A stretch of DNA of 64,000 nt from assembly GCA_963727825.1 (NCBI GenBank), contig CAVSHO010000001.1, forward strand, positions 128,001 to 192,000. Direction: 5' to 3'. The notes below the pieces were generated by a model. It saw nothing but the letters and a program-made list of their open reading frames with translations. It was not told the origin of the DNA and made no database searches. The first letter of the stretch is position 1; each line of letters starts with the position of its first letter. Shown in pieces: positions 9,139 to 64,000 of this stretch. This DNA comes from Ignavibacteriota bacterium. GTDB lineage: Bacteria > Bacteroidota > Ignavibacteria > UBA10030. The position numbers and the translations under genes were made by a program.

Positions 9139-9218
9139 AGTGATGAGTGAAGAGTGGTCAATGATAAGCGATAAGCGAGTGTAATAAAGTTTGAAGTAAA
9201 AATTCGTCACTCGTCACT
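9139..9218. repeat. Inverted pair of 7-nt periodic arrays (AGTGAnn) with empty spacer
   Basis: AGTGATG AGTGAAG AGTGGTC AATGATA AGCGATA AGCGAGT, then TCGTCAC TCGTCAC T in the opposite orientation. Confidence 0.75.
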
Positions 9219-9771
9219 ATCCATTAATCTTTGATTTTAGTTTTCGTTCAGTCAATAAAATTCCGGCGATGGTTTTGCTATCCCCAATTTCGCCGCGCGC
9301 GATCATTTCTACGGCCGTGAAAAATGGAATATATTCAACCGTAAGACTTTGTTCGCCTTCATCAAGGTTTTGTCCGTGTTCGGATTTTTTCAGTCCGGTA
9401 GCAAGATATATATGAAGTACTTCGTTGCAGAACCCCGGTGTAGTGAACATTGTAGTAAGTTTTTCATACTTATCTGCTATGTAGCCGGTTTCTTCCTGTA
9501 GTTCACGTTGAGCAGCTATAAGCGGATCTTCATTGGGTTCAAGCTTTCCAGCAGGAACTTCCAAAATGAATTTTTTGTGTGGATATCGGTACTGCCGAAC
9601 AAAAATCAAATTGCCGTTGTCGAGCAACGGTACGATAACACTTCCACCCGGGTGGCTTACAATTTCACGTTTACGGATGTTGCCGGAAACATCTTTGACC
9701 TCTTCGATAATTAAATCGATGATGCGGCCGTGATACAATCTTTCTGACTTAACTATTTTAGGGAGTGACAT
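9217..9771 (-). CDS. nudF: NUDIX hydrolase, ADP-ribose pyrophosphatase family
   Basis: Nudix box GKLEPNEDPLIAAQRELQEETG; RQYRYP and TPGF motifs. Confidence 0.88.
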   Translation of the reverse strand: MSLPKIVKSERLYHGRIIDLIIEEVKDVSGNIRKREIVSHPGGSVIVPLLDNGNLIFVRQYRYPHKKFILEVPAGKLEPNEDPLIAAQRELQEETGYIADKYEKLTTMFTTPGFCNEVLHIYLATGLKKSEHGQNLDEGEQSLTVEYIPFFTAVEMIARGEIGDSKTIAGILLTERKLKSKING

Positions 9772-10870
9772 TAGTGTTTGGTGATGAAAGTTGAACGACA
9801 TGCTGTGCAATGCCGGATGAAATTCCTTCCTTCATGAAAGCAGTATATATTTGTTCGCGTAAAGCATTCTCGGCACGGCCTTTTTTCTTCCAATCGTCGG
9901 TGCGTCCAATTAACTGAAGCGTGCATGATGATTCGCCCATTGCACTGAAAAATACATTCGGTTCCGGTTGTTTAAGCAGATCGGAATTCTGACAGGCGAT
10001 AGTCCAGCATGATTTCTCTTAGCACGCTCAATGGATGTACCGTATGCCACATTTACTTCAACGAGAACACGAATATCGTTTCTGGGATATGAATAATTGA
10101 TGACTTTGGTTTTAGTCAACTCAGAGTTTGGGCTAATAATGAGATTATTGTCAAAGTCGAGAATCTTTGTACTGCGAAGGCCAATTTCGTACACATCACC
10201 AATTTCACCTGTTGGAAGTTTTATCCGATCGCCGAGACGAAAGGGTCGATCCAGCATAATAATGAAACCGGCAATCATATTAGCAAGAGTTTCCTGTGCC
10301 GCAAGGGCGATAGCTACCGAGCCGCCGCCAAGGAAGACGAGCAAACTGCTGACATCAACGCCAAAATGTCCAAGAGAAATTACTACTGCAATGAAGAGAA
10401 TCAAAATCATAACCAACCTATTCAAGATTGGGAAAACTGCTTCATTGATCGTCGATTCTGTTTTCTTCGCATGCGTTTCCATAGCATGTTTCAACAGCGT
10501 GTCGATGAAGACGTATTATCAACGCGGTGACAAGCCAAACGAATGCGATGTAAATGATACCTTCCGAGTATTGAATCAATTCTTCGCCGATCTTATCGGT
10601 ATGGGAAATGCCTTTGGCAATTTGTTCTGCGGCGAGATACAAACCAATGACGATTGCAAGCCATTTGACGCGGGGGAGAATAACATTAAAAAGTTTATCG
10701 TCTAATTCAGTATCCGTCTTGGCAATAAGTTTGCGACCAAGGGTGTTGAGAGAGTATTTGAAGAAAAATCCAATGACCATAACGGCGACAAACGCTATAA
10801 AACCGTTCCACAGGTGAAGAGTGAATCCGTTGCCGATAAATTGCTGTATATGTTGGAATAAATCACTCAT
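9758..10870 (-). CDS. mscS: MscS-family mechanosensitive channel, frameshifted
   Basis: ALAAQETLANMIAG, DRPFRLGD and IGLRST motifs; split over ORFs 10442-10870, 9910-10494 and 9758-9940. Confidence 0.85.
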
Positions 10871-10871
10871 T

Positions 10872-11453
10872 CTAATAATTTCCTCTGCTGCCGGGTTTTA
10901 CGGCTACGCTGCCGGATTTGCACATTGGGCAATCCGCCGGCTGATGTGCGACGACCTCCATCTGTAGGACTGCAAATTGTTTTGTATCAAATTGCACTTT
11001 GCCGTTGCTTCGATCGACAATACAGCCGGCACCAATGAGATTGCCTTTTGCATTGTTCACTAATTCAATGACTTCTTTTGTAGAACCTCCGGTCGTGACA
11101 ACATCTTCCACTACGAGTACACGTTCGCCTGGAAGAATTTCAAATCCGCGGCGCAATTCCATTTTGCCATCTTTCCGTTCGGCAAAGATAGTGCGCGCGC
11201 CTAACATTCTGCCGACTTCTGTTCCAACCACAATTCCCCCGATAGCGGGAGAGAGAACGACTTCCACTTCATTATATCCAAAGTGGCGAGCAATTTCTCC
11301 GGATAGCAGGTGGAGATATTTTGGAAATTGCAATACGCGGGCGCATTGAAAATACTGCGGACTATGCAAACCGGAAGTGAGTTGGAAATGTCCTTCGAGG
11401 AGTGCTTTTGTTTCCCGGAAGATTTCAAGAATTTGTTCTTTGGGCAGTTTCAT
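10872..11453 (-). CDS. pyrE: Orotate phosphoribosyltransferase
   Basis: GHFQLTSGLHS motif; PRPP motif VVEDVVTTGGS; KPGSR C-terminus. Confidence 0.95.
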   Translation of the reverse strand: MKLPKEQILEIFRETKALLEGHFQLTSGLHSPQYFQCARVLQFPKYLHLLSGEIARHFGYNEVEVVLSPAIGGIVVGTEVGRMLGARTIFAERKDGKMELRRGFEILPGERVLVVEDVVTTGGSTKEVIELVNNAKGNLIGAGCIVDRSNGKVQFDTKQFAVLQMEVVAHQPADCPMCKSGSVAVKPGSRGNY

Positions 11454-11597
11454 GTCCAGATATTTCTTTTTGTTAAAGTGATAAAAAGATACTAAGAACT
11501 AGTTTGATGCGCAATTTTGGGTTGAAAAATGTATTGGTCCTGCCACTTATGTTACTGTTTTGTTGTGCGCAAATACTCTTTAAGGTTCAGCATTGTC

Positions 11598-61962: not shown

Positions 61963-61999
61963 ACAATGAACAGTGATTAGTGACCAATGATGTATGAAA
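61958..61999 (+). repeat. 7-nt periodic array (AATGAAC/AGTGAnn x6) containing the gldA stop
   Basis: AATGAAC AATGAAC AGTGATT AGTGACC AATGATG TATGAAA. Confidence 0.8.
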
Positions 62000-62041
62000 T
62001 TAGTATTCTGCATTTAATCTGAGTAATCCAGGAAATCATTT

Positions 62042-62791
62042 ATGAAATTCAGCATCAAAGAATTATCAATGTTTCTCGGCAAATTTTCCAATGTAGGAAC
62101 GATTTTCCAAAAAGAATTGCGTTCCTATTTCAATTCGGCAGTCGCATACGTTGTCATCGTCGTGTTTCTCGCTATTGTTGGCTGGGTATACACGAGCAGT
62201 ATGTTTCTTATCAATGTGGCATCGCTCCGCATGATGTTTGAATGGGTTCCGCTCGTGTTTCTGTTTGTAGTTCCGGCAGTGACGATGCGCCTGTTAGCGG
62301 AAGAAAAAAAGGCGGGGACAATCGAACTGCTGACGACCAAGCCATTGCACGATTGGGAAATAGTTATAGGCAAGTTTCTTGCCGCATGGGCGCTCATCAG
62401 CATTGCACTCCTACCTACGCTCATCTATTATATTACGGTTGCATTCCTCGGTGACATCGATAATGGCCCAGTAATTGGCGGCTACCTTGGCTTACTATTA
62501 ATGGCGGGTGTCTATGTGGCGGTTGGTTTACTGGCATCGAGTTTAACGGAGAACCAAATAGTAGCATTTATCATCGGCTTGCTGATGATGTTTGCATTCT
62601 ATATGATGGATAAGGTGCTTATTTTTGTTCCGGACTTTATGACCAGCGTGGTAGAATATCTTGGTATTGATTTTCACTTTGCCAATATAGCCCGTGGTGT
62701 AATCGACTCGCGGGATGTTGTATATTTCGGTTCCGTGCTTGGTTTCACTTTGTACCTTTCGGTCGTCTCGCTTGAAAGACGCAAATGGTAA
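62042..62791 (+). CDS. gldF: ABC transporter permease, GldF-like
   Basis: KELRSYF, TMRLLAEEKKAGTIELL, SSLTENQIVA and RGVIDSRD motifs. Confidence 0.88.
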   Translation: MKFSIKELSMFLGKFSNVGTIFQKELRSYFNSAVAYVVIVVFLAIVGWVYTSSMFLINVASLRMMFEWVPLVFLFVVPAVTMRLLAEEKKAGTIELLTTKPLHDWEIVIGKFLAAWALISIALLPTLIYYITVAFLGDIDNGPVIGGYLGLLLMAGVYVAVGLLASSLTENQIVAFIIGLLMMFAFYMMDKVLIFVPDFMTSVVEYLGIDFHFANIARGVIDSRDVVYFGSVLGFTLYLSVVSLERRKW

Positions 62792-62896
62792 AGTCGATGT
62801 CCAATTGTATGATGTTCGATTTGAGAAGTAATTTCTTTTCCAGAATTTATTATTTTATTTTTTCATTTTGAATTAATTTGTTTTGCATTGAAAACT

Positions 62897-64000
62897 ATGA
62901 ATACAAAAAAAGCTCAAACTCTTTTCCGGGTATTGTTGGTATTAGGTATCCTGATTCTCGTCAATTTTATTTCGGTACGGCTTTTTAGCCGGCTGGATCT
63001 AACGAAGGCGGGCGTTTATACACTCTCGGATGCAAGCAAGAATCTTGTCCGTAGCCTTGATGATCGCATTACGGTGAAAGCATATTTTACGGAAGATTTG
63101 CCAGCCCCGTACAATAATAACCGGCGGCAAGTACTGGACATTTTGAATGAGTACAAAGCATACGCCAAAGGCAACCTGCATTTTGAATTTATCAATCCGG
63201 ATGGGGAGAAAAATGAACGCGAAGCACAGCAGGCAGGGATTCCTCCGGTCGAAGTGCAGGTGGTGAAGGAAGACAAATTTGAAGTGAAACGAGCGTTTCT
63301 TGGTCTCGTGCTTTTATACGAAGACAAAAAGGAAACGCTGCCGGTAGTGCAAAATCTTGGTTCGCTGGAATATGACATCAGCTCCGCCATTAAACGTTTG
63401 ACGGTTCATGCAAAAAAACGCATCGGCTATACGACCGGACATCAAGAACCGGAACTGACGAGCATGCAAAAAGCGAATCAAGAGGTGAGTGCACAGTACG
63501 AAATAGTCCCAATTGATCTCAGTTCAAACACCGCAACGATTCCCCAGGATTTAGCGGCTCTATTGATTGTTGCACCACAGACAAAATTTTCAGATACAGC
63601 GAAATATCAAATCGATCAATACATTATGCACGGTGGCAAAGCAGCGTTCCTGCTGAATAAAGTGAATGCGTCGCTTCAGCAGCGTTATACTCAGCCGATT
63701 GAGCTTGGACTGGAAGATATGCTGGAGAATTACGGTATCCGAATTAATAGCGATTTAGTCCGGGATGCACAGTGCGCCAATGTTACTGTAATGCAGCAAC
63801 AGGGACAATTTCAAATGCAGAGTCAGATTCCGTTCCCATATCTGCCGAACGCGGTGAACTTTGACCGCGCAAATCCAATCGTAAAAGATTTACAGGGATT
63901 GATCTTCTACTTTGTCAGTTCGCTCGATACGAGTTTAGCAGTGAACAAAGGATTGAAGGCGGAAGTACTTGTGCGTTCTTCCAAACATAGCGGCAGACAA
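62897..64000 (+). CDS. gldG: GldG-like ABC auxiliary protein (3' truncated by window edge)
   Basis: MNTKK..RLDLTKAGVYTLS..YFTEDLP..LEYDISSAI..GHQE, open to the window end; absent from the ORF track because there is no stop. Confidence 0.85.
   Translation, partial: MNTKKAQTLFRVLLVLGILILVNFISVRLFSRLDLTKAGVYTLSDASKNLVRSLDDRITVKAYFTEDLPAPYNNNRRQVLDILNEYKAYAKGNLHFEFINPDGEKNEREAQQAGIPPVEVQVVKEDKFEVKRAFLGLVLLYEDKKETLPVVQNLGSLEYDISSAIKRLTVHAKKRIGYTTGHQEPELTSMQKANQEVSAQYEIVPIDLSSNTATIPQDLAALLIVAPQTKFSDTAKYQIDQYIMHGGKAAFLLNKVNASLQQRYTQPIELGLEDMLENYGIRINSDLVRDAQCANVTVMQQQGQFQMQSQIPFPYLPNAVNFDRANPIVKDLQGLIFYFVSSLDTSLAVNKGLKAEVLVRSSKHSGRQ

Follow-up and report, generated by a model that had tools for sequence, protein, structure and literature searches.

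Two kinds of described element come closest to the one reported here: the intervening sequences (IVSs) that occur in the 23S ribosomal RNA (rRNA) of Leptospira and Coxiella and carry an S23p open reading frame (ORF), and the intergenic heptamer repeats, which in Cyanobacteria go by the name STRR. In Coxiella, the IVS lies in helix 45 of the 23S rRNA, its ORF belongs to the four-helix-bundle family PF05635/TIGR02436, and its ends form a 28-bp stem that is cut by RNase III; three tandem heptamers, in varying number, precede the ORF, and an older view of the IVS as a mobile element is mentioned as well (PMC4990558). TAACTGA heptamers have been described in intergenic DNA of Beggiatoaceae, 15 Cyanobacteria, and 5 Bacteroidetes (MacGregor, 2015; PMC4679880), where they place stops in all frames, overlap with upstream stop codons, and are absent from the same junction in close relatives; a binding protein has been proposed for them, likewise in a preprint on Nostoc (10.1101/2022.06.06.494920). 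PF05635 itself has been noted as Avd-like (PMC10053308) and as occurring sporadically among the rRNA inserts of candidate phyla (10.1101/2024.02.27.582315). Here, we describe a PF05635 gene that lies between gatB and tpiA in a 64,000-nucleotide stretch of an Ignavibacteriota genome (contig C1:128001-192000; 3.12 Mb in 14 contigs), a stretch that we call the window throughout, and that is framed by two reverse-complementary arrays of degenerate 7–8-nt units, which we call its arms. A sequence-only reading of the window had pointed to nine such arrays, with periods of 7 or 8, and had proposed that inverted pairs of them mark the filled and empty states of a cassette-exchange system at operon junctions.

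The window holds sucC, gatB, a gene for a 117-residue four-helix-bundle protein, and tpiA in that order (genes were named with NCBIfam and Pfam), the third being co-directional with the operon. It occupies positions 23171..23524 on the + strand and belongs to TIGR02436/PF05635 (23S_rRNA_IVP; NCBIfam 7.1e-30, Pfam 5.9e-31, PDB 2gsc 8.6e-11), that is, to the family of the IVS ORFs. The left arm of the cassette (23093..23148, +) is made up of about six period-8 units of the form TGAGTnnn (5.5 copies at 23101-23144 according to Tandem Repeats Finder), and the right arm (23523..23561, +) of nnnACTCA units, the reverse complement of the left arm, ending ∼15 nt 5' of the tpiA ATG (23577). Between 23101-23148 and 23523-23561, the complementarity amounts to 86% over 22 nt and 100% over 13 nt, and in both the minimum-free-energy and the centroid RNA structure predicted for 23095-23580 the cassette is closed by an arm–arm stem. 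One unit of the left arm supplies the gatB stop codon (23109-23111), and another lies within the last gatB codons. The earlier proposals that a pair of arrays encloses the four-helix-bundle gene and that arrays sit at gene junctions, starting at or on the upstream stop codon, are therefore borne out here. With the rRNA IVSs, the cassette shares the ORF family and the terminal inverted repeats able to form a stem, and with the Coxiella IVS in particular the variable-copy tandem heptamers in front of the ORF (PMC4990558). It differs in location: the IVSs interrupt an rRNA helix, whereas the cassette lies between the protein genes of an operon, its arms reaching from the stop codon of one gene to just before the start codon of the next; Rfam finds no rRNA in the window and no family that matches the arrays.

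This arrangement is not peculiar to one gene. The genome has six PF05635 genes (the five intact ones were aligned, at 21–31% identity to the window copy), and each of the six has inverted, degenerate, periodic flanks, the unit differing from gene to gene. When the upstream flank is locally aligned to the reverse complement of the downstream flank, these six genes score 23–36, whereas the 95th and 99th percentiles among 2802 genes of the same genome are 19 and 22; the windows used for the six (140 and 110 nt) were slightly longer than the 100 nt used for the controls. Of 201 genomes of the same phylum, 162 contain PF05635, the matches totaling more than 1000; among 30 loci taken from 30 of these genomes, 25 exceed the 95th and 19 the 99th control percentile, and their flanks (70 nt per side) give self-match peaks at lag 7 (0.375/0.376) and lag 14 (0.358/0.348), against ∼0.28 in 600 control flanks. 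A further 80 loci were retrieved from named genomes with an alignment of 12 near-consensus proteins; among the 79 usable ones, the score exceeds 19 in 55 and 22 in 49. Nine of the 15 named loci labeled as belonging to other phyla (Acidobacteriota, Planctomycetota, Chloroflexota, Nitrospirae, Desulfobacterales, Kiritimatiellaeota, Firmicutes, and candidate phyla) score above 19 and show the same lag-7 peak, with the proviso that labels of metagenome-assembled genomes may be wrong and that related genomes are not independent. A second phylum, sampled via one of these named genomes, has the family in 87 of 151 genomes (a tally that takes in the unpublished genomes G275 and G250, on which no other claim rests) and lag-7 values of 0.44/0.40; in 21 of its 28 usable loci, the flanks score above the 95th percentile of mismatched pairs, although these controls include related loci. 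The cassette, a four-helix-bundle gene framed by two reverse-complementary arrays of degenerate 7–8-nt units, is thus of a widespread and conserved kind. Both neighbors are co-directional in 36 of 69 loci, a count that is polluted by spurious antisense ORFs and is only loosely usable.

The arms also have a fixed polarity. The combination of more G than C in the 50 nt upstream of the gene and more C than G in the 50 nt downstream is found in 25 of the 30 loci, with no locus of the opposite kind, and in 49 of the 79 named loci, with 4 opposite, whereas among all genes of this genome the two combinations number 625 versus 503 of 2810. Aligned left arms contain 9% C and aligned right arms 9% G. 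A G/C polarity that is fixed relative to the gene argues for a strand-specific function. Stop triplets are likewise enriched on the sense strand of the left arms (72, compared with 53.3 in shuffles and a maximum of 67 in 500 shuffles), and 11 of 30 arms have a stop in every frame, where 2.3 would be expected; this enrichment is seen in AT-rich genomes. Many cassettes of two genomes (G081 and G149) carry, inside the arms and 35–45 nt before the ATG, a conserved motif of ∼35 nt that consists of a T-run, GTAAGGA, ∼17 nt, and TCTTACT (loci L154, L156, L160, L164, L167, L169, L171, L173, L179, and L181); it has no match in Rfam and may be a promoter or an RNA element.

How the cassette evolves can be followed at the gatB–tpiA junction of relatives, which was read in 27 loci: 16 carry the four-helix-bundle gene and 11 lack it. 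Within the genus, 14 of 15 loci have the gene, and the other two carriers belong to two further families of the order, one genome from each. In the closest relative (gatB 95% identical), gatB and tpiA are separated by a 61-nt spacer that still holds the right arm of another allele and is a deletion remnant, and in more distant genera the spacers are 25–160 nt long and contain no arrays. Three alleles of the cassette circulate in the genus, with proteins 54–72% identical and with arm units that change in step (TGAGTC/GACTCA, TGAGAT/ATCTCA, and TGAGCC or TAAGCC/GGCTCA). The number of units per locus ranges from ∼3 to more than 10, and in every case the first of them supplies the gatB stop codon. 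The share of reverse-complementary 6-mers is 0.26 for left and right arms from one locus, 0.27 for arms of one type, and 0.10 for arms whose types differ, and in 10 of 15 cases the arm's own partner beats every arm of another type. A matrix of arm duplex energies was dropped in favor of this 6-mer measure because it left the arm types unseparated, TGAGTC pairing with GGCTCA through G·U.

Gene and arms evolve as one unit, in which the arrays gain and lose repeats. How the alleles are distributed does not follow the flanking genes, and nucleotide identities disagree between the two: in the pair L015/L018, the flanking genes are 92% and 88% identical and the cassette gene only 70%; in L007/L015, the flanks are 78% and 76% identical and the cassette gene 91%. 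Of 18 same-type pairs, 12 show higher identity in the cassette gene than in either flank, and the dS of the gene is below that of both flanks in most same-allele pairs (for L007/L015, 0.47 versus 3.66 and 1.40). Cassette alleles have thus moved between lineages, and for this, homologous recombination in the conserved flanks suffices, with no need for a dedicated recombinase. The dN/dS of the cassette gene is 0.02–0.13, similar to that of gatB and tpiA, and the four-helix-bundle protein is therefore functional and under purifying selection; the Coxiella ORF, by contrast, is reported to be decaying (PMC4990558). Comparing close PF05635 homologs across 69 loci, nearly all high-identity pairs sit at homologous junctions, which points to vertical descent. 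The two exceptions, L154/L156 (86% identical, same genome) and L054/L064 (77%), lie at different junctions and have like arms. Since like arms accompany the gene in these two pairs, and since the empty junctions of outgroups lack arrays, we read the arms as part of the cassette.

We consider the best explanation as a whole to be that the window carries an operon-junction cassette akin to the rRNA IVSs, together with further, solitary arrays of the same repeat class, and we would put its probability at roughly 60%. As to how the cassette works, we think it most likely, with moderate confidence and by analogy with the rRNA inserts, that its two arms would pair in the transcript into a long imperfect stem, looping the cassette out and isolating the insert. 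Such looping-out would let the insert be tolerated in an operon and would bring the upstream stop codon beside the downstream start codon. A double-strand RNase could then cut the stem, as RNase III does with the rRNA inserts; such cutting is reported for the Coxiella IVS (PMC4990558) and is proposed for the cassette by analogy only. The IVS precedent argues for an RNA stem.

Several observations weigh against this explanation or at least limit its reach. The fold energy of the whole cassette is no better than that of shuffled sequences (z −1.05), and the arm duplex is more stable on the sense than on the antisense strand in only 10 of 15 cassettes. Wobble mismatches are neutral with respect to RNA or DNA: in three data sets, those that would pair in the sense RNA only (G·T/T·G) number 25, 62, and 18, and those that would pair in the antisense only (A·C/C·A) number 19, 57, and 16. 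Significant inverted flanks are absent from 5 of the 30, 24 of the 79, and 7 of the 28 loci sampled. Within the genome, 66 of 74 arrays have no inverted partner, and array polarity is not significant over the 46 of the 74 that are usable (2 × 2 counts of 12, 9, 11, and 14; Fisher p 0.55), such that the mostly consistent polarity claimed by the sequence-only reading holds strongly for the arms of four-helix-bundle genes and not for arrays at large. A pair of arrays without cargo, at 9130-9222, folds significantly only on the + strand, antisense to the genes (z −3.05 versus −1.36). Finally, some GC-rich units, those of L287 and L291 among them, lack stops altogether, which means that the stop-codon idea is not general. 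Three-frame stops as the reason for periods 7 and 8 were rejected on the same grounds and because the six-unit TRA pattern is no commoner than its reversed control. Also rejected were RNAduplex flank energies as a genome-wide detector, which were dominated by GC-rich regions and other types of repeat; alignment scores were used instead. The markedly GC-rich stretch C7:1-25000, which differs from the remainder of the genome, dominated the duplex-energy ranking, and, in a genome rated 6.55% contaminated, it may be foreign DNA or binning contamination.

One alternative, which we keep open as putative, is that the arrays are multivalent binding sites for a protein, either the four-helix-bundle protein itself as a ring or another single-strand binder, with the cassette combining regulator and operator and the solitary arrays serving as targets in trans. 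PF05635 is the only family found here with such flanks, its protein is maintained by selection, and the solved homologs 2gsc and 2rld were deposited with five chains, the Xanthomonas protein being a homopentameric ring (PMC4990558); a partner that binds heptamers has, moreover, been postulated in two papers (PMC4679880; 10.1101/2022.06.06.494920). The type of arm unit co-varies with the protein allele, but linkage explains this equally well. Genomes with the gene also have six-unit heptamer arrays more often (131 of 162 with a PF05635 gene versus 11 of 39 without; within the family richest in genomes, 22 of 30 versus 2 of 9), but this cross-tabulation, made by hand, is confounded by kinship and base composition, and the same association is expected if cassettes spawn arrays. 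The six-unit TRA-N4 pattern behind these counts matches in 142 of 201 genomes of the phylum, and its reversed control is equally frequent, so that it measures heptamer arrays generally rather than stop codons. Against binding as such, the number of units is highly variable, and simple binding does not need arms that are reverse complements of each other. On balance, we regard this alternative as unlikely.

A ring of identical subunits that binds spaced (G/U)AG repeats is known in TRAP. The likeness to what the protein-binding alternative proposes (a ring reading a periodic, single-stranded repeat) is an analogy only, the fold being unrelated and the period different. In its most specific form, which we likewise think improbable, PF05635 proteins would be the missing partner of the heptamer repeats: rings that read 7–8-nt units on single-stranded RNA or DNA, with their own gene bracketed by sites in both polarities and with the solitary arrays as targets in trans. 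If true, ring protein and arrays would make up a widespread, fast-evolving layer that insulates or couples neighboring genes, with the rRNA IVSs as its best-known offshoot.

A second alternative, close to what the sequence-only reading had proposed, is that the arrays are DNA-level substrates (for recombination or as hairpins) of a transposase-free cassette exchange that fills and empties junctions with several families of cargo. Its best case is sucC–gatB. Here, a period-7 array of nnGAGTGA/CCAGTGA units (20919..20950, +) starts 4 nt past the sucC stop codon, a period-8 array of the ACTCA type (21578..21628, +) lies just 5' of the gatB start, and between them is an insert (20963..21380, +) with a 66-residue ORF, read directly from the sequence, that overlaps a 90-residue nucleotidyltransferase-like ORF, the latter probably truncated (Pfam PF14907 at 21.0 bits and PF10706 at 21.6 bits, below or near cut-off). 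Three of 25 loci have the nucleotidyltransferase-like insert between a heptamer and an octamer array, with identities of 100% (the window itself), 96%, and 47%. In L011, L017, L020, and L021, the two arrays abut with nothing between them, whereas in L007, L009, and L013 an insert separates them, which is what filled and empty states would look like. The two arrays, 20919-20946 and 21578-21617, are, however, not complementary to each other, contrary to what had been supposed for a pair enclosing the small protein and the nucleotidyltransferase. The place of the heptamer array 3' of sucC is taken in relatives by TCAGT heptamers numbering from 0 to ∼13 units; other relatives have octamers only, and in outgroups the junction consists of a spacer (−5 to 53 nt) or holds other small inserts. 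In other genera (L022, L023, L027, L030, and L031), the same junction contains unrelated inserts of 314–1376 nt whose ends look PIN/HEPN-like or DinB-like by eye. It seems that small accessory genes have landed repeatedly at the sucC–gatB junction.

Occupancy also varies at gatB–tpiA, as described above, and the two gene pairs at different junctions have taken their arms along; both facts fit cassette exchange, as does the wobble test, which does not favor RNA over DNA. Variation in cargo does not extend to the nudix–pdp junction, between the genes for a nudix hydrolase and a pyrimidine-nucleoside phosphorylase (minus strand). Here (9139..9218, −), a short GTGACGA arm runs from the stop codon, followed by a spacer and a TCAC-type arm, and no cargo lies between the arrays in any of the 27 loci that hold both genes (29 were fetched); the type of array changes among relatives, and some spacers are 5–20 nt long. 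At the junction between pruA and a zinc-ribbon gene, the arrays are degenerate and weak in the window (19140..19216, +), and in relatives of the genus clear inverted GTGATTT/AAATCAC arrays with a short loop occupy the same place; three relatives carry a tandem paralog of the downstream gene there. In L135, the loop of the array hairpin at this junction contains a GC-rich palindromic insert, which resembles an element found 5' of DUF559 genes and which would fit cassette exchange.

Other families of small genes are flanked differently, which counts against cassette exchange with several families of cargo and against arrays as a general mark of cargo, another part of the sequence-only reading. 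Neither the two GxxExxY genes nor the DUF559 genes (8 matches) of this genome have inverted arms of period 7 or 8. DUF559 genes are preceded by GC-rich palindromes (CCCTCTCC..GGAGAGGG; C1:31879, C11:387206, C7:238432, and C10:213128), and a GxxExxY gene at C7:166384-166722 lies between two 17-nt direct repeats, the second just before the start of the next gene, as if the leader had been duplicated on insertion. Nor does the rest of the evidence favor an exchange system: nearly all close homologs sit at homologous junctions, the allele replacement that is observed between conserved flanks is accounted for by homologous recombination, and a strong G/C polarity relative to the coding strand would not be expected of a symmetric DNA substrate. 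No recombinase turned up linked to the arrays, no search having been aimed at one, and nothing else shows dedicated exchange machinery. We therefore think it doubtful that the arrays serve such a system. In sum, the sequence-only reading was largely right in what it observed and right in spirit in its interpretation of one family of cargo at one or two junctions, and was otherwise too broad.

Integron cassettes with attC sites are similar in being small, mostly promoterless genes with imperfect, foldable inverted repeats and variable occupancy. The cassettes described here differ in having two periodic arrays without attC core sites, in not forming a cassette array at an attI site, and in being mostly stable at one junction; no linked integrase turned up, no search having been aimed at it, and we do not class them as integron cassettes. 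Elsewhere in the genome, small ORFs are accompanied by attC-like imperfect inverted repeats (GCCTAAC ... GTTAGGC; C11:2270-4469, C11:26158-26662, C11:80660-81515, and C12:73874-74282), which suggests that these are gene cassettes of the integron type. The Avd protein of diversity-generating retroelements is distantly related in sequence to the cassette protein (profile NF033474, E 8.8e-5, below its cut-off). The cassettes are not part of such retroelements, no reverse transcriptase or template repeat being found beside them; the single reverse transcriptase match in the genome, at C9:380466-380936, is ∼48 kb from the nearest PF05635 gene (C9:332707).

That the arrays are neutral, functionless products of replication slippage (long simple-sequence repeats, LSSRs) that lie next to four-helix-bundle genes by chance is very unlikely, for although heptamers are reported to be the commonest long simple repeats of many genomes, with slippage as the proposed cause (Mrazek 2007 as cited in PMC4679880), unit numbers change fast among relatives, most arrays here are unpaired, and some lie within reading frames, slippage makes no reverse-complementary copy across a gene, gives no fixed G/C polarity that recurs in several phyla, and leaves the co-varying arm types unexplained, so that for the cassette arms it is already contradicted.

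Solitary arrays are the common state in this genome. A genome-wide autocorrelation scan, of the kind that had been suggested as a check, finds 42 arrays at lag 7 in the 3.12 Mb, compared with 1 in shuffles, and 11 at lag 8, again compared with 1 (at least 18 of 24 matches); lags 4 and 12 give 12 and 14 arrays, and every other lag at most 8. Relaxing the threshold yields 74 arrays, of which 39 lie mostly between genes, although intergenic DNA makes up only ∼11% of the genome on the crude gene map used (the map takes the longest ORFs by greedy choice, which over-extends 5' ends, and leaves 85–93% of most contigs coding). Only 8 of the 74 have, no more than 2.5 kb away, a reverse-complementary partner that scores above all 30 random controls. 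Arrays also adjoin ordinary genes, such as etfB, nuoI/J/K, rpsD, lspA, and queD (named by reading their translations), and some enter reading frames; that many of them stand beside housekeeping genes is a further reason not to regard them as marks of cargo. With head-to-tail 7-nt units that exceed chance and are mostly intergenic, the further arrays at other junctions of the genome are intergenic heptamer repeats of the LSSR/STRR type, and some pair into hairpins without cargo.

The cassette arrays share with LSSR/STRR-type repeats the period of 7, the intergenic position near start and stop codons, stops in all three frames, the variable number of copies, and junctions that lack the repeat in close kin. 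They differ in that their units vary from locus to locus and that period 8 is also present, whereas the heptamer reports, in their accessible parts, describe direct repeats of one unit and mention neither reverse-complementary pairs that frame a gene nor the four-helix-bundle family. In the literature covered, which leaves subscription journals and supplementary files aside, we found no paper that links PF05635 genes generally to heptamer arrays, the Coxiella IVS paper apart.

Within the window, Tandem Repeats Finder reports period-7 arrays at 9163-9178, 9204-9218, 20919-20945 (3.9 copies), and 61955-61976, in addition to the period-8 array of the left arm, and the lag scan, with a threshold of 17 self-matches in 24 for lag 7 or 8, flags positions 20919, 21581, 23098, 39338, and 61946. 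Together, the two detectors find six of the nine arrays that had been listed, and a seventh, 23523-23561, is borne out by its reverse complementarity to 23101-23148. The remaining two, 19140-19216 and 40047-40082, escape both detectors and fold no better than shuffles. Across gatB, 21578-21617 is complementary to the left arm of the cassette at 23101-23148 (inverted score 40, control maximum 25), and the array at 21578..21628 is a direct repeat of the right arm (direct score 36). The gatB gene is itself bracketed by an upstream ACTCA array and a downstream TGAGT array, in the polarity opposite to that of the cassette, which makes its 5' leader and 3' trailer complementary to each other.

The other genes beside listed arrays are a DUF1015 gene, a DUF4159 and a DUF4175 gene, and gldA-like and gldF-like genes. 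The array that had been placed at a junction at 39347-39395 is not at one: it is a period-7 array (39338..39395, +) inside the DUF4159 frame, where it encodes the hydrophobic core of a signal peptide. We take the DUF4159 gene and the DUF4175 gene that follows it, both named from Pfam alone, to be a conserved operon and not cargo. TTGTTCA-type heptamers that read in frame as a signal-peptide core (motif IVHCSLL) are found here and at C9:813296-813333 and C11:230625-230666, and it seems that arrays 5' of genes have been recruited as N-terminal coding sequence. The last array of the window, with AACAATG/AACAGTG/ATTAGTG units over the stop codon of the gldA-like gene (61946..61999, +), is of period 7, is detected by Tandem Repeats Finder, and has no partner array; in relatives, the gldA–gldF junction has left-type arrays only, and in outgroups the two genes overlap.

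Outside the window, at C9:247238-248424, a flavoprotein gene (BaiN/HI0933-like by translation) is split into ORFs of 147 and 248 residues exactly at a TGATCAC-type array, which could reflect an array inside the gene, a frameshift, or a sequencing error, and CAATCCn arrays of up to ∼20 units are found at a contig end and around small ORFs (C9:13-989 and C9:25134-26160); very long arrays of this kind probably break assemblies. For annotation, the arrays matter as sources of stop codons, as sequence that can code for signal peptides, and as points at which assemblies can break.

PF05635 genes in several phyla are framed by reverse-complementary heptamer arrays with a fixed polarity, and these data show the rRNA inserts to be a special case of a much commoner operon-junction cassette, the family having more than 1000 matches in the 201 genomes of this phylum. 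Two old puzzles thereby meet, one of them being the intergenic heptamer repeats with their postulated binding partner, and both become testable by simple experiments.

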